From positions 72,292,001 through 72,356,000 of the forward strand of contig JANJGN010000008.1 in NCBI GenBank assembly GCA_026770705.1: 64,000 nt of DNA, in the 5' to 3' direction. This stretch comes from Isurus oxyrinchus. Lineage: Eukaryota. Shown here piece after piece: positions 1 to 47,600 of the stretch. Made by a program: the position numbers and the translations under genes. The notes under the pieces were generated by a model, which had not been told where the DNA came from, ran no database searches, and saw only the letters and a program-made list of their open reading frames with translations. The number at the start of each line of letters is the position of its first letter. Position 1 is the first letter of the stretch.

Positions 1-1110
1 CTTCACATATAGAAGCCATTTCTGTCCACTTTCTTCCATAATATTTTCAAGGTCACCTTGAAGTTATTTCATAAATTGTGGTAAATGCATTTCTCATAAG
101 TAAATGCCCATCTTTTTGAGATGCATCTTGCTTGTATCTCAAGAAACATGATAACTTCACATGGCAATTTGAGGATCATTTGTAATTTGTGACTTCACTC
201 ATGGAAGTGCCAGACTAAATGCTGTTTGAGCAATTTTAAAGGAAGTTTACACGTTTTGAAATGGTGACAATTTAATTTTGAAAAAAAGTGAAATATCAGC
301 ACTTAAATTCTTATTTATGTTCGCACAAAAAATACATAACAAACAAGAACGATATGTTCATAGATTTTATTAGTTATATAGCACTTGTTGGGAGTATAAA
401 TGCTGTGTCTGTATTTTGATAAATATTGGCTTACATTACATAATTTGTATAATGTAACAGTTCAATTTATTAAACTTAATAAAATTAGTTTGTGCATTGA
501 ATATCGTTTCCATGACTTCCTGTTGCGATTTCTCTATTTGACCAAATAAAATGCCAAGATCGGAAAGTGAGGGAGGAACTTCAATGTCTTGGGACAACCG
601 TACAACAAGAAAGAATGGCAGTGGGTCTGCCACTGGCTGTAGCATCTGGAAAAACCACCTTCTATATTTTATAGAGCTACTGCTGAGATTGGTGTTGCCA
701 TCAGCAGCAACAATACAATGAAAAGCGCAATAGAATTGTGCAGTTCGTAATGCTCATGATTATATACGGGTCAGCTCTTTGAGTAAAAATATCAGCAGTC
801 TCTGTTGGCATTGATGCACTTTGGTAAACACAACAGTAGCAATTGTGCATGTGGAATGTGACCCATGCATAAAGTTCAGGGTCTTTGAAACAATTCTTTT
901 CTTTGCAGTGAACTTTGTACACTAAAATGATTAGCGTATTTTATTAGGTTTAAGAAAGATGGCTAAAAATCGATGATTAAAGTTCAGCTGAAACATAAAT
1001 TAAAGATTGAGATAAAAACAAAGAAAACTGCGGATGCTGGAAATCCAAAACAAAAACAGAATTACCTGGAAAAACTCAGCAGGTCTGGCAGCATCGGCGG
1101 AGAAGAAAAG

Positions 1111-1149
1111 AGTTGACGTTTCGAGTCCTCATGACCCTTCGACAGAACT
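1111..1149 (-). ncRNA. Hammerhead-like motif, inverted-arm copy
   Basis: Reverse complement of 4086-4124. Confidence 0.7.
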
Positions 1150-1539
1150 TGATTTCGAGTCCAAGAAAGAGTTGAAATATAAGCTGGTTTAAGGTGTGTG
1201 TGTGGGGGGGCGGAGAGATAGAGAGAGAGGGAGGTGCTTGTGTAGACAAACAAGCAGTGATAGAAGCCGATCATCAAAAGATGTCAGCAACAATGGTACA
1301 AAAGAACACATAGGTGTTAAAGTTAAAGTTGGTGATATTATCTAAACGAATGTGCTAATTAAGAATGGATGGTAGGGCACTCAAGGTACAGCTCTAGTGG
1401 GGGTGGGGGGAGCATAAAAGATTTTAAAATATTTAAAAATAATGGAAATAGGTGGGAAAAGAAAAATCTATAAAATTTATAGGGAAAAAAAAAGGAAAAA
1501 GGGGGGAAACAGAAAGGGGGTGGGGATGGGGGAGGGAGC

Positions 1540-1932
1540 TCACGACCTAAAGTTGTTGAATTCAATATTCAGACCGGAAGGCTGTAAGGTGCCTAGTCGG
1601 AAGATGAGGTGTTGTTCCTCCAGTTTGCGTTGGGCTTCACTGGAACAATGCAGTAAGCCAAGGACAGACATGTGGGCAAGAGAGCAGGGTGGAGTGTTAA
1701 AATGGCAAGCGACAGGGAGGTTTGGGTCATTCTTGCGGACAGACCGCAGGTGTTCTGCAAAGCGGTCGCCCAGTTTACGTTTGGTCTCTCCAATGTAGAG
1801 GAGACCACATTGGGAGCAACGAATGCAGTAGACTAAGTTGGGGGAAATGCAAGTGAAATGCTGCTTCACTTGAAAGGAGTGTTTGGGCCCTTGGACGGTG
1901 AGGAGAGAGGAAGTGAAGGGGCAGGTGTTACA
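1540..1932 (-). pseudogene. Second (inverted) copy of the PLE GIY-YIG endonuclease domain
   Basis: ORF 1540-1869 translates identically to the C-terminus of ORF 2512-3696; it lies in the inverted arm. Confidence 0.92.
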
Positions 1933-3696
1933 CTGACCTCTACCTCGCGGAGGCTGAGCGTCAACTCGCAGACACTTCCTCCTACCTCTCCCTGGACCAT
2001 GACCCCACCACTGAACATCAAGCCATTGTTTCCAGGACTGTCACTGACCTCATCTCCTCTGGGGATCTCCCTCCCACAGCTTCCAACCTGATAGTCGCCC
2101 AACCTCGGACGGCCCGCTTCTATCTCCTACCCAAAATCCACAAACAGAACTGCCCCGGTAGACCGATCGTCTCAGCTTGCTCCTGCCCCACAGAACTCAT
2201 TTCTCGTTATCTTGACTCCCTTCTCTCTCCCCTTGTCCAGTCCCTTCCCACCTACATCCGTGATTCCTCTGACACCTTACGTCACATCAACAATTTCCAG
2301 TTCCCTGGCTCCAACCGCTTCCTCTTCACCATGGACGTCCAATCCCTCTACACCTCCATCCCCCACCAGGATGGTCTGAGGGCCCTTAGCTTCTTCCTCG
2401 AACAGAGGCCCGAACAATCCCCATCCACCACTACTCTCCTCCGTCTGGCTGAACTTGTTCTCACGTTGAACAATTTCTCCTTCAACTCCTCTCACTTTCT
2501 CCAAATAAAAGGTGTGGCTATGGGTACCCGCATGGGCCCCAGCTATGCCTGTCTCTTTATGGGGTATGTGGAACACTCCTTGTTGCAGTCCTACTCCGGC
2601 CCCCTTCCACAACTTTTTCTCCAGTACATCGATGATTACTTCGGTGCCGCTTCATGCTCTCGTCGGGACTTGGAAAAATTTATTAATTTTGCTTCCAATC
2701 TCCACCCCTCCATCATTTTCACGTGGTCCATCTCTGACACTTCCCTTCCCTTCCTTGACCTCTCTGTCTCAATCTCTGGTGATAGACTGTCCACCAATAT
2801 CCATTACAAACCCACCGACTCCCACAGCTACCTCGACTACAGCTCCTCACACCCCGCTTCCTGTAAGGACTCCATCCCATTCTCCCAGTTCCTTCGCCTT
2901 CATCGCATCTGTTCCGATGATGCTACCTTCAAAAACGGTTCCTCTGACATGTCCTCCTTCTTCCTTAACCGAGGTTTTCCACCGACGGTTGTTGACAGGG
3001 CCCTCAACCGTGTCCGGCCCATCTCCCGCGCATCCGCCCTCACGCCTTCTCCTCCCTCCCAGAAACATGATAGGGTCCCCCTTGTCCTCACTTATCACCC
3101 CACCAGCCTCCGCATTCAAAGGATCATCCTCCGCCATTTCCGCCAACTCCAGCATGATGCCACCACCAAACACATCTTCCCTTCACCCCCCCTTATCGGC
3201 ATTCCGTAGGGATCGCTCCCTCCGGGACACCCTGGTCCACTCCTCCATCACCCCCTACTCCTCAACCCCCTCCTATGGCACCACCCCATGCCCACGCAAA
3301 AGATGTAACACCTGCCCCTTCACTTCCTCTCTCCTCACCGTCCAAGGGCCCAAACACTCCTTTCAAGTGAAGCAGCATTTCACTTGCATTTCCCCCAACT
3401 TAGTCTACTGCATTCGTTGCTCCCAATGTGGTCTCCTCTACATTGGAGAGACCAAACGTAAACTGGGCGACCGCTTTGCAGAACACCTGCGGTCTGTCCG
3501 CAAGAATGACCCAAACCTCCCTGTCGCTTGCCATTTTAACACTCCACCCTGCTCTCTTGCCCACATGTCTGTCCTTGGCTTACTGCATTGTTCCAGTGAA
3601 GCCCAACGCAAACTGGAGGAACAACACCTCATCTTCCGACTAGGCACCTTACAGCCTTCCGGTCTGAATATTGAATTCAACAACTTTAGGTCGTGA
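1932..3696 (+). pseudogene. PLE reverse transcriptase-GIY-YIG endonuclease polyprotein, 5'-truncated, one +1 frameshift
   Basis: Frame reads from 1932 (TDLYLAEAERQL..FYLLPKIHK..GRPIVS..MDVQSLYTSIP..GVAMGTRMGPSYA..YIDDYF). Frameshift in the C7 run 3186-3192, then CxxxxCxxC linker and VYCIRCSQCGLLYIGETKR..RFAEH..GLN endonuclease to the stop at 3696. Confidence 0.93.
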
Positions 3697-4085
3697 GCTC
3701 CCTCCCCCATCCCCACCCCCTTTCTGTTTCCCCCCTTTTTCCTTTTTTTTTTCCCTAGAAATTTTATAGATTTTTCTTTTCCCACCTATTTCCATTATTT
3801 TTAAATATTTTAAAATCTTTTATGCTCCCCCCACCCCCACTAGAGCTGTACCTTGAGTGCCCTACCATCCATTCTTAATTAGCACATTCGTTTAGATAAT
3901 ATCACCAACTTTAACTTTAACACCTATGTGTTCTTTTGTACCATTGTTGCTGACATCTTTTGATGATCGGCTTCTATCACTACTTGTTTGTCTACACAAG
4001 CACCTCTCTCTCTCTATCTCTCCGCCCCCCCACACACACACCTTAAACCAGCTTATATTTCAACTCTTTCTTGGACTCGAAATCA

Positions 4086-4124
4086 AGTTCTGTCGAAGGG
4101 TCATGAGGACTCGAAACGTCAACT
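4086..4124 (+). ncRNA. Minimal type I hammerhead ribozyme-like motif in PLE 3' region
   Basis: AGTT-CTGTCGA-A-GGGTC(ATGAG)GACTC-GAAA-CG-TC-AACT: stem I AGTT/AACT, stem II GGGTC/GACTC, GAAA, palindromic ACGT in place of stem III, GUC cleavage triplet. The core differs from CUGANGA at position 6. Confidence 0.72.
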
Positions 4125-4899
4125 CTTTTCTTCTCCGCCGATGCTGCCAGACCTGCTGAGTTTTTCCAGGTAATTCTGTTTTTGTTTTATAAATTAAAGA
4201 TTGTCTAGGGAGATTACAATACTTATAGTACATAAAATATGGTGTATTATTGCGCTTTTGAACAAATGTGAGGAAAACACTAGACTTTTTAAGTTACTCG
4301 ATAACGATAACAAAAAATAATATAGGATGACATTCATAAACTAATATGTGTGCATGCTTTCAGATGAAATTTTGGGACTCTGGTCCCAATTTCCAATGCA
4401 TGGGGATGAAGGTGAAGGAATAAAAAAAGGTAAATTTTTGGGGGGCGGGCAGAAATCAAAATTTTTGGCTGACCTTGGATCTGCCATGTTTCCTGTCCCA
4501 TTCTGCACCCGGAAAAAATGTGCCAGCACACTGTTTAATGCAGCCATCCGGGGAAAGCATTTCTGCAATTGTCAACTAGTATTATCAGCGTAACATAGGT
4601 GAACTTGACCTAACCTGCACAAAAGAACAGGAAATTTTAAACACAAGCTACTTCTAGCGTATTTGAGTCTCCGCAATCTTCAATATTGGTTTTAAAATTG
4701 TTTTGCCCAAAGTTAGCTCCATCCACAAAATCGCATCCCAGATTGAAGTAGGATGGTTGAGTATCTGCCGCCTCCGCCCATTTACGACTGTTTGAGGGTT
4801 TTTTTTAGGTGTACGAGAACTAGTAGGTGTGCTTGTGAATTTTTTCCATATTAATATTTATTAAATCTGATAGGGGAATAAGCAGAAATTTAGAAACTT

Positions 4900-9592: not shown

Positions 9593-10069
9593 AAATAAAT
9601 GATCAAATAATTGAAAGGGTTTTACTTACTTGGCTAATTAAGATAATGTAACATATTGATTTGGCTCAGTGGTAGCTTTATTGTCTCTACTCCAGAAGCT
9701 GATTACCTCCCTGTTCTCACAATTCTGTGATGGAGTGCTGTGGTTGAAGGTACTTTTTTTTTTGCTTGAGACATAAACCTGAGACCATGGCCAAAGTTTT
9801 CTTTTTGGCGGATGGCGGCGGACCGGATCGCTGCCTGCAATCGGAGCCATGCAGCCATTTTGTGCCAGCGGGCCAATTAAGGCCCACCCAGTGCATTTCT
9901 GACTCCCGTGGAGAGCGGGAGTCTGAAGTTTGCAGTGGGCGTGTACAGACCACCGGGTCCAATGGCGACCAGGCAGTCTGTTTAAAAAAAAAGGCCTGGC
10001 AGCCTCCTTTAAGCTGTTTACAATGGCCAGCTACAGGTGGTACTGCAGGGGGTCTGCACAGCAGGTCAA

Positions 10070-13000
10070 TGTTGAGGGAAAGCCAGAGGAGGAGGGAAGG
10101 CTGCAGGGTGTGGCCCAGGAGCAGGGCAGACTGCAGGGTAGGACAGTGGGGGGGGGGGGGGGGGGGGGCAATGTGCCCATTGCTTTTCTGATGATTTCTT
10201 TGCTGCCCTTCTCGAGGAGGTGGCAGCACAGCGGGAGGTGCTGTTTCCCCAGGATGGGAGGAGGAGGCCCCCCCCACATGATGAAGTGTACCTGGGAGGA
10301 GGTGGCAGAGGTGGTGAGCTCCTGCGACGTGGTGCGGCGCACCTGGATCCAGTGCCATAAGCGCTTCAACAATTTGTTGCGCTCTGCAAGGGTGAATGCC
10401 ATGTTGGTGTTGGGCATTTAACCTTAGCCTTTGAGGGCCAACCCCCCCTCCACCAAGTCTTAGTGTCGTGACTACGTTGAATCATGTTGGGCATTTATCG
10501 CATGCTGGGTGGGCAAGCAGATAGTGCCCATGATTACATCAGCCTTATTGGTTGATGAGAAGATGGGTTCTCCCCAAACTATGTGTTGGTCTTAGTTGGA
10601 CATAACTAGTCTGGGAGCAACCTGCAGGAGATGGAACTAGGCGCATACTCAGAACTCCAACACATGTCCTATTCATGGCGATGAGATTGTGGAAGGGGAG
10701 CCTCAAGGTGTTGTGGTCAAGAGCCATCTGATGCTCTTGGTGCCGCACCTAGTTGTGCCTCCTTGCTATGGGAGCTAAGACCATGTGTTTCTGAAAGCAA
10801 TGGATGCAGAATGTTTCCAAGGTGGCCGTTGAGGAGTGGGGCTGGGAGCAGTCGTACAATATTTTTGTGACTGATCAGCAGCAACGTGGAGAGGAGGCAC
10901 TCGAGGCCTGATATGGGCCGCTGTGGTTAGGGTGCAGCGTGCGCATGCAGAGTACATGTGCGATTAGCCCCAATGAATGGTCTTCTCTGTTTTGCAGGAG
11001 AAAAATGCACACAATGCTTATGAGTGTTTGTGCACTGGAGGCAGCCAGGCCCAGTTGGTGATATTGAACCATTTTGAGCAGGAGGCCCTGGAGTTTGAAA
11101 CGCGCCCAGGTCCACAGGTGTCAGTGAGGCTGGGGTGCAGTGGCCAGGTATTTGAGGTCCGCAGTCACATCCACTCTGTCTTCCCACCGTCTAAAGCACT
11201 GATGATTGTTGGAATCGTTAATGTAGCAACACTGCTCATTCACAGACTGATAGAGTCAGAGGTGTGGGTTATAGACAAAGGTCCCTCGGCCCTTCGAAGA
11301 TGTGCGTGTCCAGCACCTTCCAAAGCCGCCTTATCCCATTTCTGACCACTATCCCCATGGCGTTGTATGCCACGGCATCGCAACTTCACATCCAAATACT
11401 TATTACATGTTAGGAGGGTTTCTGCATCCACCACCTTTTCAGGCAGTGCGTCCCACATTACTGTGTGCAAGAGTTCCTCCACACCTCACCTGTCAACCTC
11501 ATACCCCTTAACTTAAATCAATGCCACCAGGTTACTCATCCCTCTGCCAAGGGCAAAAGTTACTTTCTGTCCACTCTATCTATGCCTCTCTTAATGTTAT
11601 GAAGCTCAGTAATGTCACCCCTCAATCTCCTGTGCTGCACGGCAAATATCCCCAGTCTATGCTATGTGTCCTCATAACTTCAACTCTCCAGCCCTGCATG
11701 CATCCTGGTCAGTGACCTTTGCACTCTCTCCACTCCAATCACACACCTCCCATGAAGCATGATCACAACTGCACACAGAACTATAGCTGCGGCCTAGGCA
11801 GCGTTTTCTGCACTTGCAACATGACCTCCCTATTCCTACATTCTATTCCTCGGCTAATAAAGGCAAGTATGCCATTTACCTTCTTAAATGCCTTATGTAC
11901 CTGTCCTTCTACCTTAATGGGCCTGTCGACATGCCCAGCAAGGTCCCTTTAATCCTCCTTACTTTCCACAGTCCTACCATTCCTTGTGTATTCCCGTATC
12001 TTGTTTGTCCTGTCCAAGTGCATCACCTCACACTTATCCACGTAACATTCCATTTGGCATTCCTTAGGCCATATGACCAGCCCATCTGTATCTGCCTGTA
12101 CTGTTTGGGCTTCCTCCTGACTATTTGCCGCCCCACCAATGTTCGTCTCCTTAGGTTCTGGAAGGTTGAGCGCATAATGACCCTGGGGGAAAGGGATGAA
12201 GTGTGTCGCTGTATGGACACTGATCCATTGTCCTTGAAGTTATTTTCAGCACCATCAGAGGCTGGCGACCAGGCTCCATTACAGATGCTCCCTCTCACAC
12301 CTGAGGGCCGTGAACTGTCTCCTGCGTCACACCATTTCTGCCAGGCAGGCACCAGCGCAAATACTAGCACTTCGGTGGGAATTGCAGCATCGGCTGGTGT
12401 CCTGGGGCATGGTGGAGAGGGCACTTCACAATCACTGGAGGAGATGGCAAAGACAGAGAGTGCCAATGGCGCCAGCAGCCAGAGGACTGCAGGGGACCAG
12501 GGACATGCTGAGTCAGGGTGTGATGATGTGCCTGTGGAGTTGTCCGCGACGCAGCAGCTGCAGGAAATGCGGCCTGGTGTGCGGGAGCATCTGGGAGTGT
12601 TGCATGAGACCATGCTTCGCTTGGTGTCCGTCGTGGAGGAGTCCACGCGCAGCATGAGTGATGCCATGAGCCTCATGTCAGAGCGTCATGCTTCCTCCAT
12701 GGAGAGAAGGGCTTCCAGGAGAACAAGCAGCTTCTCCTGGGGATATGCTCGGACCTGCAAGTCCTCACAGCGCCAGTGGCCACAGCTGGTCATTGGTAAT
12801 GTGGGAGATGGTTTGGGCAACAAGTTTCCCAGCTCGGTGTCCATCCATCATTGGCGAGCAGGGAGGTCCGAAGCAACTTTACGTCAGCGCAGCAGCTGCC
12901 TGTCATCTCTGCAGGCTCCTCTCAGGGCGCTACGGATGAGGGCAGCAGCTCCTCCGCCCCCCTGCCAGTGACTGTTGCATCCGTTGAGGCTGCAACGACT

Positions 13001-13195
13001 GGGGGGCTGCCAGCTGTGGAACTGGCCACTCCCTCCCAGGCGGGGCCAGCACAGGCTCCATGGGCCAGAGGACGTCTGCCAAGGTCATCGAAGCCACCAG
13101 GACAGCAGAATCAGCAGGCTGTCTCAGATACCACTCCAAGCGATGGGGCGGCACCAAAATGTAGCACCCGTAAACATAAGCATAAGATACCTTAG
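10070..13195 (+). pseudogene. Harbinger Myb/SANT-like DNA-binding protein gene, spliced (exons ~10070-10391, 10998-11147, 12155-12200, 12250-13195)
   Basis: FSDDFFAALLEEVAAQREVLFP..WEEVAEVVSSCDVVRRTWIQCHKRFNNLLRSAR|GT..TTTGCAG|EKNAHN..TGG; GT-AG boundaries; several frameshifts. Start position approximate. Confidence 0.75.
11243..12140 (-). mobile_element. CR1-type LINE 3' fragment nested in intron 2 of the Harbinger Myb gene
   Basis: ORF 11240-11482 VMWDALPEKVVDAETLLTCNKYLD is the CR1 ORF2 C-terminus; WNVTW-like RT remnants further on. Confidence 0.75.
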
Positions 13196-13539
13196 GCACA
13201 CCACGGGTTTCTCACTGGTGCTTTTGTGTTGGCCCTAGATTGGGGAATTATTATTTATTGCTGTTGTAAAAATGTTTTGCTTTCATTTTTTTGCACCATA
13301 TCATGGATTAAATTCAATTAAATTAAAGATGTGTTATCATGGCTGAGGGTGGCTCCTTTGTTCTGCATTTGTATGTTTTACAGACATGTCATGTGTGTTT
13401 GAGTGGACATTGAGGTTCATGTCCAAAGCCCTTAGTTGCAGCTGATGAAGTGGCAGATGTAGCACTTAAGTGCTGCGTATGGAAGTGCCAGGCAAGCTGG
13501 TCCTCCTGATCCATTTGTGTGGAGCTAGCTGAAGGTTCA

Positions 13540-14728
13540 TTGGCTTAAAGTCTCCCAGGTGTCCCTGCCTCCTTGGTGTAGTCCCGGGTCAGCATTCAGC
13601 TCCTCATCATTGCCCTCTGCTTCTCATCCTCTGAATCAATGCTGGACGCATTGTGTGCAGCTGCATCCACTGGGTCAACGTCTTCACCATCCACTGCATC
13701 CCCACTTTTCAGCGCAAGATTGTGCAGAGCACAGCATGCAACCACTATCACTGAGACATGATCTGGGGCGTACTGGAGTGCACCCCCTGAGTGGTCCAGG
13801 CATCGGAATGCATCTTGAGAAGACTGATGGTTCTCTCCACCACAGCTCTTGTGGAGGCATGGCTCCTATTATAGCGCTGCTCAACTTCTGTTCTTGGATG
13901 GCAGAGAGGTGTCATGAGCCGCCTTTTGAGGAGATAGCCCTTGTCACCCAGCAGCCATTCATCAAGTGAGCCAGAGCACTGAAGAGCTCCGGCACCTGGG
14001 AGTGTCTGAGGATGTAGGTGTCATGGGAGCTGCCTGTGTACCTTGCACAGTCTTGTAGAATCTGCATCCTGTGTTCACACACTATCTGCACTTTCATGGA
14101 GTGGAAGCCCTTCCTGTTGAGAAAGGCACCGGGCTCACCCGCTGGCACCTTGATGGCCACACGTCTGCAGTCTATTGCACCCTGGACTTGGGGGAAGCCT
14201 GCAATGGCCGCGAAGCCTCTGGCTCGCTGTGCCTGACTTGCTTGGTCGCAGCGGATGTGGATGAAGGTCAATGCACACCTGATAGGAGTGACTGTGACCT
14301 GCTTGACACAAGTGTGGACAGCTGATTGGGAGACACCACAAAGATCACCCACTGAACCTGGAAGGAGCCAGGGGCATAGAAGTTGAGGGCAACTGTGACC
14401 TTCAGAGCCGCTGGCATGGGGTGTCCACCCACACTTAGGAGAGATCTCATGGCCAATCATCTGACAGATATTGTTGATTGTCTCCCTCGACAGTCGGAGC
14501 CTCCTTCGGCACTGCACCTCAGTCATATTGAGGTAGCTGCTTCGCCGTCTGTATACCCTGGCAGCAGGATAATGGTGTCTTCTGTGGCCCCTTCCATCTT
14601 GGACTACCTCTTGGCCCTGTGCCCCTTATGCCTGCGCCTGTACTCTCAAAGGTGGCTCCACTGGAGGCTGATTGTGCACTCCTGGCCTCCTCAGATGAGC
14701 TGCCTCCAGTAGACATGTCAGAACCCAT
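13540..14728 (-). pseudogene. Harbinger (HARBI1-like) DDE transposase, frameshifted
   Basis: [93 protein letters not shown] across frames. Confidence 0.92.
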
Positions 14729-24257: not shown

Positions 24258-25152
24258 ATAATTTCAGTTGACTAATGTAATCACTGAAAAGGTTGATTGT
24301 CAGAACAGTTATATTTAATTAAATAACACATAACAAAAGGACATGTGGCAAGTTTGCTTTTGAGAGGAATTCCTTGGATTAAAATGTTCTTTGTTAAAAC
24401 ATTGATCTGGATTAAGCGGTAAAAATAATGTTGGGGCTATTGTACTGTTATTACAGAGTAAACTGGACAGCAACTTATGCTGGCTGCACATGTGCAGTTA
24501 AGTGTGGAAACCAGGAAGTTGTCTGAGTTGCCCTGCTCCTCCAGAAGTTTTTGCACAAACTGTATATTAATGAGAGATTCATACATATAACTGCATGAAG
24601 TTGGGGCACTTAGTTGATGGATACTACTTACTAACCATGAAATAAAAAAATTCAGGCTTGCCCGTTCAAGTGTCAGGGAATTTATCAATGGCATGATAAA
24701 TCTTGATTACTATCAAACATCTTTCTGGCACTGAAAATTAACTTTCAAAATTGTGGAGAATTATTCCTTCAGGTTTTGATTATTTCTTTCTGTCTCTTAC
24801 CTCTCTCAATCTCACCTTTCTTTCCCTTTCTTTATTTCACTTTCTGTACACAATTTTGCATTGAATTAAATCTCTAATTTATATGCAGTCTAAACCAGGA
24901 AGTGCAAGGATTCTTCAATCTGATTGCTTAAGGAGGCATACCATTACTTGTCCAGTTCACACAGGCCAACAGTCTCCTGTGGAGTGACACATACGGTTTT
25001 AACTACCCAATGATTGCAAGTTGCAATGCAAAAGCCCACAGAACATTTGTGGGAAGTGTAAGTTTGCAGCTAATCGCAAAATACAGACCAAAACTTTGAA
25101 AAGTTATTCATTTTGGAGCTATGAGCATCACTAGCAAGGTTAATATCTATTG

Positions 25153-25391
25153 ATAAAAACAAAAAACTGTGGATGCTGGAAATCCAAAACAAAAACAGAA
25201 TTACCTGGAAAAACTCAGCAGATCTGGCAGCATCGGCGGAGAAGAAGAGTTGACATTTTGAGTCCTCATGACCCTTCAACAGACCCTTCAGTTCTGTTGA
25301 AGGGTCATGAGGACTTGAAACGTCAACTCTTTTCTTCTCCGCCAGTGCTGCCAGACCTGCTGAGTTTTTCCAGGTAATTCTGTTTTTGTTT
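25153..25391. mobile_element. 239-bp fold-back mini-PLE (two tail-out 3' ends)
   Basis: Arms ~25186-25283 and ~25293-25391 are reverse complements, same family as 1010-4188; 13-bp TSD TTAATATCTATTG at 25140-25152 and 25392-25404. Confidence 0.9.
25290..25328 (+). ncRNA. Hammerhead-like motif in mini-PLE
   Basis: AGTT CTGTTGA A GGGTC ATGAG GACTT GAAA CG TC AACT. Confidence 0.6.
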
Positions 25392-26148
25392 TTAATATCT
25401 ATTGTCCTACCCTATTTGTCCCTGAGAAAGTGGTGGTGAGCTGCCTTTTTGAACTGCTGCAGTCTATGTGGTGAAATGCTGCTATATTGCTGTTAGGTGA
25501 TGAGTTATAGGATTATGACCCAGCATCCATGAACTCAAGCCTAGATGATGTGTGCCTTGAAGGTGAACCTGGAGATAATGGTGTTTTTCTGCATTTGGTG
25601 GTCTTGTCCTTCAAATCGTATGGACACAGGTTTTGTAATACTTTAGAATATCATACTGCCTTTCTTTATTCAAGTACGTGGACAATACTAGATTCTGTGT
25701 AGTCTACATTTGGAATTCTGATTGACTATTCTCTTCATGTGCATGAGGAGAAAGAAGAAATATTTGAAATAGTTCTATTTATATCACGCCATAAATCATG
25801 GAAACAGCTTAAGCATTTTGCATGGTGATTGTTCTACTGACAAATATAACCGCTTTTCTGATGAGGAACATTCCACAAACAGTACTGACATGTATGAGTG
25901 GTTACTAATATTTTGGTGATATTGCTGAGAGGAATGTTAGCCAGGAATGTTATTTCCTGCTCATCAAGCTATTCAAGCTAGTGTTATGGAACCTGTAATG
26001 CCCAACTGAAAAGACAGATAAGATCTTTGATTAATTTTTCAGATAAAGGACAGAAATTCCATCGGTGCAGCACTCCTTCACTACCATACTGGAATGCCCA
26101 CCTGGTTTATGTGCTCAAATCTTGTTTTCTTCTTGGTGGAAAAGTTAA

Positions 26149-28087: not shown

Positions 28088-28314
28088 TGCGGGAAAAAAA
28101 AAGAAAAGGTTGGAAGTATTCAGCAGGTCTGGCAGCATCTGTGAAGAAAAGAAGCAAAGTTAATGTTTCAGGTTTCATCAGATGAAAGGTCATCAACCTG
28201 AAACATTACTTCTGTTTCTTTCTCTACAGATGCTGCCTGACCTGCTGAACATTTTCAGTATTATTTGTTTTTATTTCGGATTTCTAGCATCTGTATTATT
28301 TTGCTTTTGCCTTA
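28088..28314. mobile_element. Older fold-back mini-PLE of a related family
   Basis: CAGCAGGTCTGGCAGCATCTGT..AATGTTTCAGGTT mirrored by AACCTGAAACATT..ACAGATGCTGCCTGACCTGCTG; centre TTTCATCAGATGAAA; possible TSD AAAGGACTT (28079-28087, 28315-28323). Confidence 0.72.
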
Positions 28315-33200: not shown

Positions 33201-33601
33201 CAACTCATTCAGTATAAACAGTATAAAACTATATATTCATGTGTGGGAAAAATAAGGTGAGTAGTTAGGACCTCAAATGCAGTGCCAGATGGTGTTGTAG
33301 TAATTGAAGGTATAACCTTTCTCACTGCCTATCAGGGGTCACCTGATTGTTCTTGGAGGCTCTGACCAATGATCCCTTAGTGCAGGTAATCTGGGGTGGG
33401 GCTTCTTGTTGAGGACCTGGTTCAAGCATGTAGCATCTGAAAAGCTCTCTGTAATAAAGTTATCTGTTTCTGGTTGAAACCTGTTTGGTACGTCAAGTTA
33501 TTGCATTTGGTGACGAGGGTGAAAAAGCTCCAAAGGCACACCTTGCTTTGTTACGTGAGTACGTCAAACCTTAAGAAAAAAGAAAAGACTACTCACCAGT
33601 C

Positions 33602-34572
33602 ATGCCGCTCTTCGGCAGAATCGATCCTTATGACGCAACTATGGAAAACTGGAGTCAGTATATAGAGCGCCTTGGTTTTTATTTTGTAGCAAATGAAATT
33701 GCCGTGGAGGAAAAGCAGAAAGCAATTCTTTTGAGTGTATGTGGTAGCAAGACATACAATCTCATCTGCAGTCTGACAGCCCAGAACGTGCCTAGTTATA
33801 AGTCCTTTAATGGATTATTAGACCTTGTGAAAACACATTTCCAGCTGATGCCATCCGTAATAATGCAGAGGTTTAAGTTTAATTTCAGAGTAAGGGCCCC
33901 GGGAGAGTCCATCGCAACCTATATAGTGAAGTTGATGCAGTTGACTGAGCACTGCGACTTCGGGGACGCACTCAGTGATATGCTGCGGGACCGATTAGTT
34001 TGTGGAGTTCATGACGATGCCATTCAGTGCTGTTTACTCTAAGAGGTCAACATCGATTTGAAGCGTGCCATGGAAATAGCACCAGTCATGGAAACTACTG
34101 CGGGAGACTCGCAGGCTTTGTAACACGTACAATATGGCGCTGTTCTTCATGTGGGGCAGGAACCTACACTAGGTGTGGTGTGAAAACCAGAGACACAGCA
34201 GCGAAGTGAGAGGCAATGTCTGCTGTTAGAAAAATGAAAAGACCTAGTAGAAACACTTCAACAGTGACTCTAAGGTTAATCTGTTATAGATGTGGGGGTG
34301 ACCATGTACCGGGCACCTGCAGATTCAAGGAGGCAGAATGCCATTACTGCCAGAAGAAAGGTCACATAATAAAGCAATGCAGGGCGGAATCGAAACAGCA
34401 TATAAAGAAGCAAACCAACATGATTGAATTGAATAATACAAAAGAACCTGAAGCTGCCACTACTGACATTTGTTTCTTGTACAACATTACAGTGGTAAAA
34501 ACTGAACCAATTACAGTCACAACCCAAGTGAATGGGAAGCCACTAATAATGGAGTGGTGGGAAAGCACATGA
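33602..34572 (+). pseudogene. Gypsy gag (with zinc knuckles) and start of protease
   Basis: MPLFGRIDPYD..WSQYIERL..LRDRLVCG..; CYRCGGDH..C..CHYCQKKGHIIKQC; VNGKPLIME; stops and frameshifts. Confidence 0.88.
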
Positions 34573-36203
34573 GGGTACCCAGCCACTGAATCTGGAGCGG
34601 ACAACTGCTCAATTGAAGACATACACTGGAGAATCCATACAGGTAAAGGGCATCGCCACAGTACCAGTGCCTTATAGGCAACAAATAATCCAGCTTCCAA
34701 GTGATCATAGTGACATGTGAAAGACCTAATCTTCTGGGCTGAGACTGGTTACAAAAAAATCAAGCTCAACTGGTCTAAAGTGTTAAACTTGAGAACAGGA
34801 GGAGTTCCTGTCCTGCTAAGGAAATACAACGGTACATTTCATGATGAATCAGGGAAGTTAAAAGGCTTGCAAGCAAAAATATATGTAGATTCTCAGCCAC
34901 AGGGTGGATGCCATGGGTTTGCATCTGATAGAAGAGAAAGTTAGGGAAATCAAAGATGTGCCCCCTCCATCCAGTGAAACCGAACTAAAGCCTTTGCTGG
35001 GCATGATCAACTATTATAGCTGTTTCTTGCCAAACTTGTCAACTGTGTTAGCACTATTACATTTGTTGTTTAAAAAGAATCATCATTGGTCATGGAATTC
35101 ACAACAGGAAGAAGCCTTTGTGAAAGTTACGAAGCTATTACATTCATCCTGTTTATTGGTACACTACAACCCATCGAAAGAATTGGTATTAACGTGTCAT
35201 GTGTCTCCTTATGGTGTGGGAGCTGTGTTATTACATCGGATGGAAGATGGATTAGAAAGGCCCATTCGCTATGTCTCCCAAACCCCCTCCACAGCCGAGA
35301 AGGGTTATTCCCAGCTAGAAAAAGAAGGTTTATCGGTGGTATGCGGAATGAAGAAATTCCACCAATCACATTTCACCATTGTGTCAGCTGATAAACCATT
35401 AATGGGTTTATTCATGAGTATAAAGCCATTTCACCAATTGCATCAGCAAAAATTCAATGTTGGGCTTTGATTTTACCTGTGTATGAGTATACCTTTATGC
35501 ACTGTCCTGGCTTACATTTTGCAAATGTGGATGCACTTGGTCACCTCTTGTACATGCTCCAGTGCCACAAGAAGTTGTGGTTGTATTGAATTTCATGGAT
35601 TCTTTTCCTGTGTGTGCAAAGCAAATTAGGAATTGGACAAACAGGGATCCAATTTTGTTGAAAGTCAGAGACCTTGTTTTGCAAGGGTGGTCAAATTTAC
35701 CAGTGTCTGAAGAGATGAGACCCTTCCATGCTCAAAAAATTGAGTTAAGTTGTTCAGATGGAATCTTGTTGTGGGGACCAAGAGTTGTTGTCTCTTCACA
35801 AGGAAGAGAACCACTCTTCCCAGAACTCCAGTGCGCATCCAGGCATATTGAAAATGGAAATGCTTGCATGAAGCTGTGACTGGTGGCCAGACATTGACAG
35901 TGACATTGAAAGCATGATCAAACACTCCCTTCGTTGTCAGCAACAAAAGAAGTTGCCTGTGTCAGCTCCACCGCATCCATGGGAATGGCCTGGTTGACCA
36001 TGGGTTAGATTACATATTGATTATGTAGGACAATTTTTTGGTACCATGTTTTTATTGATCGTAGATGCGCATTCTAAATGGATGCATGTGTATGAAACAA
36101 GTTCACCGACATCAAGCACAACTGTTGAAAATCTGTGTCAATGCTTTAGTATACAAGGCCTACTGGAAGTCATAGTTTTGGATAATGGTACAGTCTTTAC
36201 CAG

Positions 36204-37114
36204 TGTTATGATACAGCAGATAATGTGTGCCAGGCGGATCAAATCCAAGAAGGAAACTTGATCATGCGGTCACAATGGTTTTGCAATTTATATTTTATTT
36301 CAAGATATGTGCCCTGAATTCAGAAGTACTAAGTCCACTAAGACTTCAGAGATTTTTTTAGAAAATTAAATTAAACATTTATTAACAAAAGAAAAGATTT
36401 CAAGCACATACATAGGTCTACAAATTACTATTATAATAACTCCTAAAGCCCCTGATTAATCTGACTTCCATTATACCCCCATTAAAGTAACAGTAAAAAA
36501 ATAGATTTAAACAGATCCAGACAAGTCAAACATAATACCCTGGACAGGAGAATTCGAAGTGGCTTTTCCTAGCTTCAGTTTCTGTAGACAGCAGCTTAAT
36601 GCACAAATACTGGAGGTTTTTTTTACACTTCTGGTAGATCTTACAATGCCTTCCCTGACACACAGCTTCAATCTCCCGTACACATGTTTCTCCCTTTTGA
36701 TGTAAATCCCATTGTTCCCAAATGTCTTTGGAACTTTGCCTTTCTTATAATATAAATCATTTCATGGTGCTAATAGTATCTGTAGCCTTTGGAAAAAATA
36801 AACACACTGCTAGGCCTAGCTTCTCTGGCTGGGTGTAATATCCTACCATCTCCTTGAAATTCAAACTACCTTGATTTATCTAAAAATGCAAATTCTCCCC
36901 ATCTCACATTCCAAAACTTCAGCCATGTTTGCATATTTAACATCTCACACTTAGCTTCTTTTGATGAGTCAAAGCCTCCAGACCAGCTGTCTCCAATTCA
37001 ATTAATTTCCAACCCCTCCCCCCCACAAGCACAGAAACTATCCAAACCCCACTATTAACCTACTTCTACAATAAATCACAATAATATTATGAAAATTATT
37101 ATACTTTGGTGACA
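36204..37114 (-). mobile_element. Solo LTR nested in Gypsy integrase
   Basis: TGTTATGA..GGTGACA; perfect 5-bp TSD ACCAG (36199-36203, 37115-37119); integrase reads DNGTVFTS|TEFQRF across it. Confidence 0.9.
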
Positions 37115-37415
37115 ACCAGTACAGAGTTTCAGAGATTCATGAATTTAAATGGAATCAGACATATTAAAACTGCACCATATCATCCCACATCAAATGGTTT
37201 AGCTGAAGGAGTTGGGCATACTTTCAAATCTGGAATGAAGAGGTTATCCAAAGATACTCTAGAATCTCAACTTTCCTGCTTTCTTCTCAATTATTGTACA
37301 ATGCCTCATTCAACTACTGACTCAACTCCATCTGAATTATTGATGAAACATCACCTACATACAAAGTTAAATCAGGAATTTCCAAACTTAGAGGGGAATG
37401 TAGAGAAGGATCAGG

Positions 37416-38144
37416 TGTTGTGGGGAATTTTCAGTCAGGGAACATGGTTCCTTGACTGTGTGGTTGTTCTCCCTGACATTAGCTCGATGAAAAGGTATGT
37501 AGGGACAACTCCTTGGTGCCAGTGCTCGGACCCCTGTTGCTTGTGAGCCAACCTGGTTCAGTTGAGAACAATAGGCTGAGCTAGTTAATAATGTAAATCT
37601 GTGTAAGATAGGGACAGACGCTGATGTGGGCTGTATGTGTATTTTATGTGTTTAAAATAATTGGAATCGACTGGGCATTGTGAACACCCATAACCTTGTT
37701 ACAGGGGGGCAGTTAATGAGAGATGGATGTCTGTAAGTAGACAATAGTAGACTATCAATATTCATTGGAGTTCACCTCCAATGGCTATCAATACTTATCA
37801 GAGTTTACCACCGGCTGCATTGTAGCATGAACATGACTGTGTACAATCGTTAATATGAAATGGGAAGCAATCTCCGTGTATTGTTTACAATCTCTGCTTA
37901 TTGTTAGCCATAGCAATGAATGAAACTATCTTACTATAAAAACTGGATACATGCTTGTATTCATTAGATGTGACTCTGGTGTAGCCCACATCTCTCGTTG
38001 CAACGATAATAAAATCAACTGTGTCTTCGCCTCCAGCTGGGGTCTCGTGGCTTTCTCTTGTTTTCTCTAGGCCACACTAATTCAACAGGAAGCCCTCAGC
38101 AAATTAATAGACCCCAAGAAGTGTAATTGAGAAATCCCCCAACA
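37416..38144 (+). mobile_element. Second solo LTR nested in Gypsy integrase C-terminus
   Basis: TGTTGTGGGGA..TCCCCCAACA; 4-bp TSD CAGG (37412-37415, 38145-38148); AATAAA ~38008; host frame VEKDQ|DNQKLNHD. Confidence 0.9.
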
Positions 38145-39069: not shown

Positions 39070-39513
39070 GAGAAAAAAAAGTGACAGGTGGCATTCACAT
39101 TTTTGCTCAAACCTCGATCCAGGGCGGGATGAAATCTCCGTGGGGAAATAAAATAAAATGAGGTATCTGGGGACTGATTTTTTTTAATGAGGTATACTTT
39201 CAGGTGCTTGATTGTGCTATATTGACATATTTTGCAGCATTTTATTGTGTCCTTTAGCCTATGGAAGCCTGTAGTTCTCTGGGGCAGCTGTCTGCTTTCA
39301 GGGAGGTCTCTTGAAGCGCTCATTCACACTCTTGGTTACGTCAGTGCCTGCCCCCATTCTGGCATCACTGAGCATTTCAGTGCGTGTTTCACACTGGCTG
39401 GTCGTTAATTGGCGTGAAATCGTGGCCTGGGGCTGATCACGGCTGGTGGCTCATTTCTCGTCCGCTCTCAGGCCAGCCGATCATGCGTGCCCAACGACCA
39501 AAAAATTCAGGCC
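39070..39513. mobile_element. Partial Harbinger MITE (right part)
   Basis: AAACCTCGATCCAGGGCGGGATG motif shared with the 23567/27325 MITEs; right TIR AAAAATTCAGGCC. Confidence 0.7.
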
Positions 39514-41063
39514 TCTGTTACAGAGATATGTTGTGGTTATTTGCTACAGTGTTCTGCCTATATGTTGGCTGATGAGGTTGTGTTCAGGAGCCCACTATTC
39601 CACAACGATGTTTCAGTTGCTCTGTGAACTGGTAGGAATGCTTCTTGCTGATTCCCTGAGGTGAAAGGTCAGATGTGATGAGTTAGATTAAGGTTAGCCT
39701 GAGGGTGGCCAATGAACCAAAGTCAGGTTGCAATTTTGAGATATTAAACTTTAAAGATTTTCATTGTCAACTACTCAACATTAATTTTAAGCCACTCTCA
39801 CTGAATTATACCAGTGTAATATTTCCATTAGGGATTTATTTCTGTCAGGGGGAGTTATTAGGATTACTTTCCAATGCACGACCTAACAAGAAATTTGACA
39901 GCCATGTCAGACCACCCCTCTTTCATTTACAACGTTAGCTATCCTCTTGTCCCTTGACTGTTTTTACATCCAACACCTTCAGTGTAAACTGAAGATTAAA
40001 CAAATAATTTATGGTGCCTGTGTCAAACTGCATTTTTTAACACCTTTCCATGCTTATTTAGACAAATGACAGCTATCAGCTATGAATAACATACAATAAA
40101 ACTACCTCATCTACCACCATTAAGAAATTTTGTCTCTGCAAGTAAAGTAATTACTGACACTTACTGCCCAAGCTTTAACATGCAATTAAATACCTCACAT
40201 TTTAATTTTTCTTTAGGGATTCACTGGAATGTTAGAAATAATAACTAAATAGCTTCATGGGTAAAAACATGATCTATGATCTTTATTAGTTACTTGCTGG
40301 ATGAAATTACTGTGAATGTAATAATTTAGTGTATTAATAGTAGAGTATTTTCCCTACACTCTCAAAATTTCCTCTTGGGCCCAAACTATTCTATAATGCA
40401 CAGACCTACCATATTACAGAATATCTTAATTTACCTCTGCCTCTCTTGTAGTCCATTATAATTGTGGTATTAAGGTTGCGCGGCAGAGAGTGTAGAGCAG
40501 TAAAAAGGAATTGTAAAAAATGACCCAGTTGTTCTGGCCTGTGCAGTAGCATGGGTGCATTAGCCTATCTTGTTGGGGGCCGATCGCGGCTGGTGGCCCA
40601 TTTCCTGTCTGCTCTCGGGCCAGCCGATCGTGCATGCCTGACGACCGAAAAATTCAGGCCTCTATTACAGAGATATGTTGTGGTTATTTGCTACAGTGTT
40701 CTGCCAATATGTTGGCTGACGAAGTTGTGTTCAGGAGCCCACTATTCCACAACGATGTTTCAGTTGCTCTGTGAACTGGTAAGAATGTTTCTTATGATTC
40801 CCTGAGGTGAAAGGTCAGATGTGATGAGTTAGATTAAGGTTAGCTTGAGGGTGGCCAATGAACCAAAGTCAGGTTGCAATATTGAGATATCAAACTTTGA
40901 AGATATTCATTTTAAGTCACTCTCACTGAATTATATCAATATAATGTTTCCAGAAGATAGTTATTAGGATTACTTTCCAATGCACGACCTAACAAGAAAT
41001 TTGACAGCCATATCAGACCACCCCTCTTTCATTTACAATCTTTTATCTTGACTGTTTTTACAT
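39428..41063 (+). repeat. Local direct duplication of ~0.5 kb (39428-39969 and 40575-41063)
   Basis: Long colinear matches (e.g. TACAGAGATATGTTGTGGTTATTTGCTACAGTGTTCTGCC; GAGGTGAAAGGTCAGATGTGATGAGTTAGATTAAGGTTAGC), with small deletions in copy 2. Confidence 0.92.
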
Positions 41064-42129: not shown

Positions 42130-43285
42130 GTATTGCTGAAAAAAAAGACATGTCAAAGCTTTTTGACTTGCACTCATCAGGACACTTCGCAAGAATATCA
42201 ATACAAGGTGAAAACAACAATTTATACTGTATGGGAAGAGAGTGCTGATTGGTTGGCAAATGGACTCTGGTACAGGCATTGCTATGCAGAATGCACCAAA
42301 TTGATGATGACTAGTTAACTGCCAAGCATTGTTTGAAATTTAAACCAGGCAGATTGATCCTGATTGGTCAAGGCATTGCCTTGAGGAATGAGTCAGCAAA
42401 TGGCTGTCACTTATTTTGTTTAACTGAAATTGGTGCAATGGGTGTACATGTTCTTTGTGTCTGCAAAGAACAGAGCCCTGTGTATTAATATATGTAACTT
42501 CCAGTACACGCAAATATGCCACACTGCGAGCCCAACTGATAATCTTAAATTGGTCGTCAGCGTAATTCTTAGCAAACTGAGAATTAGTTAGCAAATGTTG
42601 TCCAATTGTGGAATCATATCTAATGTTGGACATTGTGTTTTGAATTTTGCAAGTCTGTACTTTACCTGTTGCATACTGCAGCTCAGACATGCTGTTTGAT
42701 ACAATTCGCCAATCTTTAGGTCTACATACCTAGCGTCACACTGGCACCGAAATTCATATACCACATTACTAATTTGTGTGATAAGTAGGATGCCTTTTTG
42801 GCTTGATGGCAATGCCCTATTAGTGGTGATTATCACTCATGTTGTTACTGCATAGTAGCAGTGTGAAACAGCCCGCTGCACCTGTTGCTCAAATTTTTGA
42901 GATACCTTGCCCTTTCAGGGTAACCTGAGGTAGACTGGGCACTTTTCAGGGCTGAAAGTGATGGCCTTGGACCTGTTCATGTGTTTGTGTGAAATATAGA
43001 GCAAAATGATCTGATCAGGGCAACCATTATCCAGCAAGATGCCTTTGATGCACTCTATTTCAACATCAGGCCTGTATGGTGAACAAATGACTCGGGTTCT
43101 ATTTACAAGGTTGCTGATAAGACGGATTTTATAGTGCGTGGATTCTTACAGTTCCACATGCTATAAGATAGGTCTTATCGGCAACCTTCCAAATAGGGCA
43201 TGGGCCGTTTGCTCACCATGCAATCTTGATGCTGAAATAGGGTGCATCAAAGGCATCCTGCCGGATAATGACTGCCCTGAATTAT
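42130..43285 (-). mobile_element. Old PLE of a different lineage (RT C-terminus + GIY-YIG), with fold-back at its 5' end
   Basis: SNVVYEFRCQCDARYV, DSTIGQHLL..FKII..LEVTYI..LC; YKIRLISNLVNR..ICSP..ILLDNG; inverted copy of ~43010-43139 at ~43140-43285. Confidence 0.82.
42151..42184 (-). ncRNA. Decayed minimal hammerhead motif at 3' end of old PLE
   Basis: TGTC-CTGATGA-GTGCAAGTC-AAAAAGCTTT-GACA: canonical CUGAUGA, stem I TGTC/GACA, palindromic AAGCTT; GAAA box eroded. Confidence 0.55.
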
Positions 43286-44636: not shown

Positions 44637-47600
44637 TTTTTTTGAAAAATATATTTCATTCATAAAATATGTGAAAAAACATTACAAAACATTTCAAAAT
44701 AGCCATCCCAAAAAGTGCAACATTAATCATTTCAACCAGGTCATTATCGTGAGAGAGTGCTATGGTATTTAAGTTATCTACATAGATCATTGTTGCACTC
44801 TGAGGTGCTTCAATACAATTGTGATACATGCAGTATTCGCTGCATGCATTCAGTGTGAGTCTTACAACCTGATGGGTCTATAGAATTTCCAGTCCCTTGG
44901 CACACTATGGCTGAAAGCTCTTAGACAGTGACCTTTCCCCATTACGCCTTTACGGCGGCTGCCCCAAGCTTTAGCGCATCCCTCAGCACATAGTCCTGGA
45001 CCTTGGAATGTGCCAGTCTGCAACACTTGGTTGGGGATAACTCTTTGCACTGGAAGACCAACAGGCAGACCAAAGAACGTCTTTCACAGAGTTGATGATT
45101 CTCCAGCTGCAGTTAATTTTTGTCTCGGTGTGTCCCCATGGGAGAGTCCTGTGTCAAGGAGCCACTCGTGATGAACCTCAACAAAAACCACTGTATCCCT
45201 CTCCAGACCTTCTTTGCAAAGGTACATTTCACAAGGAGGGGAACAACGGTCTCTTCCCCACGACAGTCAACTCAAGGGCAACATGTGGAGGGGTGAGACT
45301 CCTGGGGTATAGGAAGGATCTGACGGGGAGGGCCTTTCTCACCACCAGCCAAGCTATGTCTTGGTGCTTGTTGCAAAGTTCTGGTGATGAGGCATTCTGC
45401 CAAATGACTTTGACAGTCTGCTTGGGAAACCATCTGACAGGATCCAGCATCTCCTTTTCCAGCAGGACCTCTAGGATGTTACGTGCCGACCACTGCCGAT
45501 GGACTTGTGGTCAAAAGTATTTCTCTGCATAAATTTTTCCACGAGGGACAGGTGGTACGGCACGGTCCAACTACTTGGAGTGTTCCGTGGCAGCGTGGCC
45601 AGACCCATCCTTTGTAACACCAGGGACAGGTAGAACCGCAGCACCTAGGGACACTTGGTTTTTGCATACCCAGAGTCTATGCACAGCTTGATGCAGCCAC
45701 ACACAAAAGGTGGCCATCAGGATGAGGGCGATGTTGGGTAAGTTTTTTCCCCCCTTTATCCAAAAGTTTGTACAATTTGCTCCTGCGAACACGATCTATT
45801 TTCACTCTCCAGATAAAGCAAAAGATGGCTTGGTTGATCGCCACTGTGCAGGAGTGAGGAATGGGCCAGACCTGCGCCACATACAGCAACACCGAAAGTG
45901 CCTCACACCTGATGACCAGGTTCTTATCCGCAATGGAGAGGGAGCGTTACCCCCATTGCTCAGTTTTCTTTTCACCATAGCCACTCGCTCCTTCCAGTTT
46001 CTATCGCATGTCCTGGTCCCTCCAAACCACATCCCCAGCACCCTCAGGCAGTCTGACCTGATGGTGAAGGGGCAAAGGATCGGTCAGCCTAGTTCCCAAA
46101 GAACATGGCCTCGCTGTTGCCACGGCTCCTGAGGTCAGTTCGAACTGGTCACAGATGTTGATCAGTTTGCACACCGACAGCGGATCTGAGCAGAAGACGG
46201 TGACATTGTCCATGTGCAGGGATGCTTTGACCTGAGTGTCTCCACTGCCTGGGATTTTCACTCCTCTTATGCCTGGATCCTGCCTGATGGACTCAGCAAA
46301 CACACAAATAGGACAGGGGAGAGAGAGCAGTCCTGTCCAACTCCAGATTTAATTGAAAAGTTTTATGATTCCCACCCATTGATTGAAACTGCACTACAGA
46401 TCTTTGTGTGGAGCAGTTGGATCCCAAACTCCAATTTGGAGAGTACGTGTAGGTGTGCGAAACTCTGTCAAAGACCTTCTCCTGGTCCATCTGATGAGGC
46501 AGGTGTCTACACCCCTGTCTCGTACATAGGCATTTGTATCCCTGAGTAGCGTGAGGCTGTCAGAGATCTTCCTGCCGGGAACAGCGCAGGTCTGGTCAGG
46601 GTGGATCACCAACTCCAGACTTGACCCCACTGGCGATGACCTTGGACAGAACCTGATAGTCCTCATTCAAAAGTGAGATAGGTCACCAATTTCTAATTTC
46701 CTCCTTTTCCCCCTTCCGCTTGTAGACGAGGGTAATGATGCCTTTCCTCATGGATTCTGACATACTGCTGGCCAGAAGCAAACTCTCGTACACTTCTAGC
46801 AGATCTGGGCCGATCTAGCCCCACAGAGCCAAATACAACTCAGATGGTAAGCTGTCGCTTCTGGGAGTTTTATTCTTCTTGAAGGACTCAAGGGCTTTAG
46901 TCAGTTTGTCAGGAGTTAGCAGTTTGTCCAGACTTTCCCGTGAACTGTTTTTTAAGAATTCCATGATAGAGGACAGAAAGGACTGGGAGGCTGTGCTGTC
47001 TGTGGGCTTCAGGTCATACAATCCAGCATAAAAGGATTTTCTGATTCTCAAAACATTACTGATCCATCTTCTTCCTTCAGGTTGCTGATCACAGAGCTCT
47101 CTATGTATCTTTTGGAAGAAGAAACGTGAACACGTCTCATCCTGCTCCACAGAGACTACTCTGGACTGGAAGATGATCTTGGAGGCCTCCAAGACAAAGA
47201 GTGAGGCTTGCTGGCTCTTTACCTCTTGGAGTTCCTCCTTGACATTGACCCCCATCGCTGCAGCTGGAGCAGGTTCTGCATGTTTTTCTGAAGTTGGCAC
47301 CTTTCCCTCTGTTCCTTTCTAGCCTTCTGGATGCCTTTGAGAATAAACAAACTTCTTGATGTTCTCCTTGATCACTTCCCACCAGTGTGTCAGGGACTCG
47401 GAGGGGTTTCATGGTTCTCCAACCTTTGCAATCCCTCATAAGTTCCTCAATGTTCTCTGGGGTCAGCAGTTGCAAGTAGTTCAGCTTCCAAGTCCCCCTG
47501 CCAAACCTCTGGTCTTTCTGTGAGTGATAGTTGGCCAGTAGGAGGCAGTGGTCAGAGATATTGGTGGATCTGACTGTGAATGCTCGGGACACAAACAGGA

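Follow-up and report, generated by a model that had tools for sequence, protein, structure and literature searches.

A minimal hammerhead motif with a U6 core in the terminal repeats of an abundant Penelope-like retroelement

The motif and its host element

The window analyzed here, a stretch of 64,000 nucleotides of the Isurus oxyrinchus genome, contains at 1010-4188 a two-ended insertion of a Penelope-like element, delimited by its inverted repeats and tail classes and flanked by a 15-bp target-site duplication (plus strand, 995-1009 on the left and 4189-4203 on the right). Counting from the start of stem I of the hammerhead motif discussed below, the inverted, 5'-truncated arm (~1010-1932) has a long tail ending ~139 nt downstream, and the direct arm (~1933-4188) a short tail ending at +102. 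The plus strand carries the reverse transcriptase part of a 5'-truncated ORF (1917-3209; PF00078, RVT_1, E 4e-8) and, with a frame change near 3190, a Cys linker (C-x4-C-x2-C) joined to a GIY-YIG endonuclease (3190-3696; PF01541, E 9e-5), a layout of Neptune/Nematis type. Comparison of majority lines picks out a conserved tail box at 4141-4169 (plus strand, +55 to +83), just upstream of two priming sites; its putative function is likely to be protein binding.

At 4086-4124 of the plus strand, with its layout read from sequence and pair counts, lies a 39-nt minimal type I hammerhead motif. A 4-bp stem I (4086-4089/4121-4124) encloses the core CUGUCGA (4090-4096, U6 being 4093), an extra A after position 9 (4097), a 5-bp stem II that includes one G.U pair (4098-4102/4108-4112) and is closed by a 5-nt loop (4103-4107), the GAAA (4113-4116), the palindrome ACGU that stands for stem III (4116-4119), and a GUC site with the cut predicted after C17 (4120). 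Stems I and II, the GAAA, the GUC site and the palindromic stem III had all been named in the initial annotation of this DNA, and all are present. Helices I and II around the core, the extra nucleotide after 9 and G10.1-C11.1 are those of the minimal hammerheads of Penelope-like elements, while G12 A13 A14, A15.1-U16.1 and H17 are canonical and have stayed unchanged along the lineage, save for a U-to-C change at 17. Stem III is palindromic at 15.1-16.1, and its ACGU is invariant in 20 of 20 aligned rows, most of which were fetched with patterns containing ACGU. The departure from the canonical core C3 U4 G5 A6 N7 G8 A9 is U6.

An identical motif at 1111-1149 (minus strand) belongs to the inverted arm of the same insertion and is not independent of it; another, with core CUGUCGA, lies at 52366-52404 (minus strand) in a short single-arm copy (~52262-52490). 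A mini fold-back insertion of the same family at 25153-25392, with two arms and no ORF, is flanked by a 12-bp duplication (25141-25152 and 25393-25404) and carries a motif on the plus strand at 25290-25328, with core CUGUUGA and one further C-to-T change in stem II, as well as a fifth, partly truncated U6 copy on the minus strand (~25248-25285). The earlier statement that four window copies share U6 within CUGUCGA is therefore right for U6 in all four, but the core at 25290-25328 is CUGUUGA. A decayed fold-back copy of an older sibling family (28096-28277) keeps A6. Older relatives on the minus strand include a decayed copy of a related Penelope-like ORF at 53900-55800, 73-84% alike in pieces to 1917-3710, and a terminal-repeat relative at 57682-57830 in which the hammerhead core has decayed.

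The element unit measures 3.3 kb and stands in tandem elsewhere in the 5.0-Gb genome. As expected of an endonuclease-bearing Penelope-like element, a single ORF encodes reverse transcriptase and then GIY-YIG (Pfam), and it is intact in one copy (L093), where 917 codons lie between two U6 motifs and begin 175 nt after stem I. Pseudo-LTRs (pLTRs) occur in tandem (the 3.3-kb units) or inverted, with a tail of 30-40 bp at one end (87 of 90 inverted pairs). The C-x4-C-x2-C linker between the two domains conforms to the CX2-5CxxC type, a feature of the Neptune and Nematis clades (PMC8557442), and the element is called Neptune-type here from domain layout and linker, both shared with Nematis, rather than from a reverse transcriptase tree against references. 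The motif is thus a minimal hammerhead in the terminal repeat of a Neptune-type Penelope-like element, and element context and homology uphold the original assignment to such a repeat. A second canonical hammerhead elsewhere in the unit was considered and rejected, there being no other core on the plus strand and, on the minus strand, core-like strings without the layout, as judged by eye. So was a non-LTR retrozyme, i.e., non-coding tandem repeats each with a hammerhead, since the motif is part of an element with an ORF and of truncated copies thereof.

The covariance-model search suggested for the hammerhead gave it no support: Rfam hammerhead models have no match in the window at E up to 10, and the sole Rfam signals, sub-threshold hairpin (microRNA) matches on the fold-back insertions, are not hammerheads. 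Nor does the isolated motif show extra stability over shuffles (z 0.06); its hammerhead form is not the minimum-energy form, and alternative folds lie within 1-3 kcal/mol. Because of this z value and the lack of an Rfam match, the case for a hammerhead is built on homology and evolution, and folding energies are not counted in its favor.

Elsewhere in the window, broken ORF pieces at 33575-37546 (plus strand) resemble gag, reverse transcriptase/RNase H and integrase of what we take to be an LTR retrotransposon. Pieces at 9717-14625, Myb/SANT-like on the plus strand and nuclease-like on the minus strand, presumably derive from a Harbinger-type DNA transposon, and endonuclease/reverse transcriptase-like pieces at 46815-47637 (minus strand) presumably from a decayed LINE. 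A direct duplication with ~1.15-kb spacing (39429-41038), a 128-nt inverted repeat (43015-43280) and repeats with ~330-nt spacing (49839-52138) are also present.

Core position 6 across the genome and the age of U6

A pattern search with exact stems and the seven core letters left free finds 72,330 copies of the motif in the genome, as against none for the control pattern read backwards, a count that falls with copy age as exact-match counts do. Among the first 100 matches listed of these 72,330, the core is CUGUCGA in 80 and CUGUUGA in 12, with U6 in 99 and A6 in none. U6 is therefore fixed at the source level of the family and is not decay of single copies. The initial annotation had argued against random decay from the four window copies, which were insufficient by themselves, and the genome-wide count now bears it out; likewise the family consensus is non-canonical rather than CUGANGA. 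In an unselected sample of 864 kb, made up of the window and 80 further stretches, a descriptor with position 6 free finds U6 in 43 of 46 matches, one of the 43 being a chance hit, and gives 0, 1 and 0 matches on three shuffles. Strict core descriptors would thus miss most intact motifs in such a genome.

A non-U letter at position 6 occurs in 1,420 exact-stem copies, and the first 100 matches listed of these comprise 81 CUGCUGA, 8 CUGCCGA, 6 with A6 and 5 with G6; from these proportions, C6 copies number ~1,100. Because CUGCUGA exceeds CUGCCGA, the reverse of the U6 background, and because upstream letters are shared, we infer a C6 side branch that would also have arisen at source level. The motif is covered by contigs from public runs of three coded organisms, and among the matches listed at a 5% threshold these show no alternative letter at 4093; that these runs are RNA is a guess, one being probably DNA, and such contigs cannot show RNA ends. 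The finding suggests that the U6 lineage is common to related species.

Older relatives with a canonical core occupy 9,783 places in the genome. Copies with the older loop divide into 1,435 with A6 and 2,557 without, nearly all of the latter CUGUUGA, and A6 is also the prevailing letter in a sibling family whose stem II differs (85 of the first 100 matches listed of 144). Because A6 is kept in these older relatives and in the sibling family, U6 is read as the derived state, the A-to-U direction resting on these outgroups. Decay of CpG as the sole source of CUGUUGA was rejected, the 2,557 older-loop non-A6 copies marking CUGUUGA as the ancestral U6 state. A tree of 49 endonuclease ends takes the form of a ladder from A6 through CUGUUGA to CUGUCGA, in which support is firm (100/99) for the node of the younger loop type and weak (66/80) for the A6/U6 split, with one A6 copy placed among early U6 copies. 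Divergence of copies from their majority line is 3.8% for 4 A6 copies, 4.7% for 9 early U6 copies and 0.6% for the 24 youngest, so that by this measure the A6 copies are not older than the early U6 copies, and the two sources were probably roughly contemporaneous in their activity. The youngest copies are very uniform, and the burst of the family is young.

Constraint on the fold and the ends of copies

Between the majority lines of the 4 A6 and the 9 early U6 copies, the sole motif difference is position 6. From early U6 to the majority line of the 24 youngest copies, 5 of 39 motif sites changed, namely N7, two loop letters, H17 (U to C) and one A-U pair that became G.U, and all five changes are hammerhead-compatible. 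Over the same span, changes are found at 74 of 316 aligned sites of the 3' UTR, 14 of 91 third codon positions, 12 of 27 sites in the 30 nt before stem I and 4 of 16 in the 16 nt after, and drift of the source since U6 amounts to ~15-23% at free sites. Only about a third of the possible motif changes would be hammerhead-compatible (P 0.002-0.006 for five of five), and 4-6 disruptive ones are expected at neutral rates where none is seen (P 0.002-0.018), in a selection test that draws on just five changes and on a list of compatible changes drawn up for this analysis. The ten core sites did not change at all, as against 4 of 9 hammerhead-free sites (P 0.03). The tail box, with 1 of 29 sites changed since the early U6 copies, is as conserved as the motif, and an overlapping non-ribozyme function could explain the constraint on the latter as well.

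Covariation, proposed earlier as a check on the fold, is found in part. Across 20 aligned motifs stem II is 100% paired, and two of its five pairs have changed on both sides relative to the sibling family, although this is one split between two families and hence few independent events. Stem I is 87% paired across the aligned motifs, and neither there nor within the U6 lineage is there covariation, the one A-U to G.U change excepted. The initial annotation had left a choice between an active variant core and a weakened fold that is nevertheless kept; constraint on the rest of the fold after U6 fits either, cutting itself being predicted only.

Copy ends speak to what is used as template. In an unselected sample of 48 young copies, 27 have a 5' boundary between -45 and +38; 14 of these fall at -3 to +4, the start of stem I (P 3e-8 if uniform, the arms of one insertion not being independent), and none falls at the cut site. 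Counts over the whole genome give 226 starts at the cut site, compared with 111 at a control position 3 nt before it and 767 at +2; fold-back microhomologies account for many of the +2 starts and some of the cut-site starts. Set against an estimated ~59,000 uncut copies, the cut-site starts come to ~0.4%. Genomic copy ends give no sign of cutting at 4120 in the form of a clear pile-up, and cut-site 5' ends were discarded as a gauge of activity, standing only ~2-fold over the control and owing in part to fold-back via stem I complementarity. In an older tail class, 7 cut-site starts compare with 1,219 uncut copies; because cut-site starts are scarce in this class too, about half of which is A6 (13 of the 24 copies parsed), genomic ends cannot rank U6 against A6 in activity. 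Since copies rarely begin at the cut site and pile up at the start of stem I, insertion templates appear to be mostly uncut, and to judge from these ends cleavage does not define the copied 5' end in A6 or U6 elements. This agrees with the element of the green anole, whose hammerhead mutants insert normally and for which no reads end at the cut site (PMC11167929).

The two-ended insertions obey a tail rule. Among 90 head-to-head pairs, taken from the window and loci L001-L272, which were chosen by motif patterns and not by tail length, 87 combine a short and a long tail (near +100 and +128-145), 3 have two long tails and none two short, where 45 mixed pairs would be expected. We infer from the rule two different priming events per insertion, and it limits models of how the protein primes both target strands. 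The initial annotation had offered RNA dimerization, a signal pairing two templates, as the origin of two-ended insertions. The palindrome in stem III is indeed kept and such insertions are common (90 pairs), but a symmetric RNA dimer predicts no rule of tail length, and the 4-bp palindrome duplex is computed at only ~-3 kcal/mol. Moreover, inverted insertions are also made by Penelope clades without canonical hammerheads, and a tail at one end only has already been described for Penelope-like elements (PMC8557442); in the anole element, two adjacent priming sites and extension of both target strands are properties of the protein, itself a predicted dimer (PMC11167929). Dimerization as the cause of two-ended insertions is thus not borne out, and we regard it as exceedingly improbable.

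Cleavage by the U6 motif and its known relatives

Published work reports low activity for changes at A6 (PMC3088659; PMC7151607; PMC9901934), the measurements concerning A6C or scaffolds other than the minimal one. A natural A6C hammerhead has k below 0.1 per min, and low activity is cited there for position-6 changes (Perreault et al. 2011, PMC3088659). In a fast ribozyme, A6C lowers the rate from 0.3 to 3.55e-6 per min in 0.3 mM Mg2+, the variant being active in Mn2+ (Naghdi et al. 2020, PMC7151607), and when a different hammerhead was scanned in depth, every single or double mutant of the CUGA turn apart from a C-G swap had low activity (PMC9901934). Minimal hammerheads are described as slow even as dimers. 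The anole element inserts equally well with a dead hammerhead, and that hammerhead cleaves only with protein (PMC11167929).

We favor, at about even probability, a motif weakened in cutting, still constrained in shape, and whose cutting is not needed for the insertion template, a reading built on the family-wide U6, the A6 outgroups, intact copies without a second hammerhead, the compatible-only changes and the 5' ends at stem I. Source copies of this abundant retrotransposon would have fixed U for A at core position 6; the resulting motif likely cuts much more weakly than its A6 ancestor, its hammerhead shape is likely still held by selection, and cutting is likely dispensable for making the insertion template. 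The element RNA would begin at or near stem I, and the element protein would prime reverse transcription within the tail, ~100 nt downstream at one site and 130-140 nt at the other, copying back through the uncut motif. What is selected might be a residual slow, perhaps protein-assisted cleavage, or the fold itself, as a structure of the 5' end or a site for protein binding.

Alternatively, the motif may be catalytically dead, with its letters retained for a second role, whether as internal promoter, as start-site element or as a 5' protein-binding sequence. The 5' ends of copies do coincide with the start of stem I, as expected if the RNA starts there; an internal promoter lacking a TATA box is known from Drosophila Penelope (PMC2377424); the tail box is equally conserved; and U6 adds a predicted pairing across the core in the early U6 copies. 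Yet the changes fall exactly on hammerhead-free positions and spare the core, which makes this a rather unlikely account, if one to be taken seriously. That U6 is instead tolerated, in a dimer or with the protein of the element, and that the motif cuts at a biologically useful rate is an unlikely alternative in the face of the low activity of nearly all CUGA-turn mutants in the deep scan, the fall in Mg2+ rate with A6C (PMC7151607), the slowness of minimal hammerheads to begin with and the lack of a pile-up of copies at the cut site. In its favor, the 10 other core letters, the palindrome and H17 have come intact through ~15-23% neutral drift; in a side branch position 6 underwent a second change, to C, as if only that site had been freed; the anole hammerhead is protein-assisted (PMC11167929); and activity, higher in Mn2+, is known for a natural A6C hammerhead of a phage (PMC7151607). 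A ribozyme that died with A6U and has its decay still to come, i.e., a neutral relic, is very improbable given that the 4 to 6 disruptive changes expected are wanting while the adjoining flanks have changed freely; it does draw on the small number of changes to judge by, on the good proliferation of Penelope clades without canonical hammerheads (PMC8557442) and on the normal insertion of hammerhead mutants in vitro (PMC11167929).

Among known systems, the closest are the minimal hammerheads that metazoan Penelope-like elements carry (Cervera and de la Pena 2014, PMC4209133), with which the present motif shares a location in the pLTR, a 4-bp helix I, an extra nucleotide between 9 and 10.1, G10.1-C11.1, a palindromic 15.2-16.2 without loop 3, and tens of thousands of solo copies. 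It differs in having U6 in the dominant subfamilies, where the core variant named in the text of that paper is U3-A8, and in the uniformity of its copies, which reflects a young burst. The present element also resembles PAc, a Poseidon element of the green anole (Frangieh et al. 2024, PMC11167929): in both, two priming sites lie beyond the hammerhead and make the tail optional, targets are AT-rich, copies do not end at the cut site, and both target strands are extended. On the other hand, the PAc ORF starts inside the hammerhead rather than well beyond it, the Neptune-type Cys linker is a feature of the element described here, and the accessible text on PAc does not report its core as an A6 variant. 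A natural change at position 6, with a C6 branch as here, is known from the A6C hammerhead of phage Bcep176 (Perreault et al. 2011, PMC3088659; Naghdi et al. 2020, PMC7151607), which is, however, a single phage locus with a measured low, Mn2+-favored activity, whereas U6 here occupies a dimer-type minimal scaffold at >70,000 loci and its activity is predicted only. The Naiad and Chlamys clades, too, combine high copy number with inverted, tailed insertions and have no canonical ribozyme (Craig et al. 2021, PMC8557442), but by that account their motif is absent or unrecognizable, whereas here the whole fold persists but for one letter and the ancestral state is still in the genome. The role of the hammerhead in endonuclease-bearing Penelope elements is described there as an open question.

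To that question the present family brings a natural experiment, in that an autonomous element has reached >70,000 copies despite a core change expected to cripple cutting, with the other hammerhead features kept, and in that A6, U6 and C6 versions one letter apart make a side-by-side assay possible. It is doubtful that this is the first natural A6U hammerhead still at work, with position 6 freed in this lineage, from A to U and, in one branch, on to C, protein or dimer replacing A6, and cutting gated by protein at a late step; were it so, the genome would preserve a complete, dated record of the ribozyme before and after the change. Small hammerhead variants of Penelope elements are reportedly the subject of work by Lunse et al. 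from 2017. In the full-text literature searched, no U6 hammerhead, nor such a core in a Penelope element, was found, although that work and the supplements of PMC4209133 and of bioRxiv 10.64898/2026.07.22.740005 could already list position-6 variants.

Several smaller features lie around the motif. A 10-nt repeat of the stem II 3' arm plus GAAA, new in the youngest subfamily, lies just before stem I at 4073-4082; it is predicted to pair with the stem I 5' arm and could stop the 3' motif copy from folding. Older subfamilies (loci L071-L090, L043 and L062) have before stem I, at the equivalent of 4058-4087, a pyrimidine tract ending in AG that is splice-acceptor-like and that has eroded in the youngest subfamily. 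In Drosophila Penelope an intron is described as ending at helix I; in the public-run contigs no spliced joint was seen at stem I. The A6U change (4093) removes an AUG inside the core, a later loop change (4103-4105) creates an AUG that opens an 18-codon frame ahead of the main ORF, and another AUG (4141-4143) opens a 10-codon frame there as well; control of translation may be part of the selection on AUG-related letters. After the tail box, at 4170-4175, a splice-donor-like GT is present from around the time of U6, reading GTAA in the youngest copies and having C in the oldest families.
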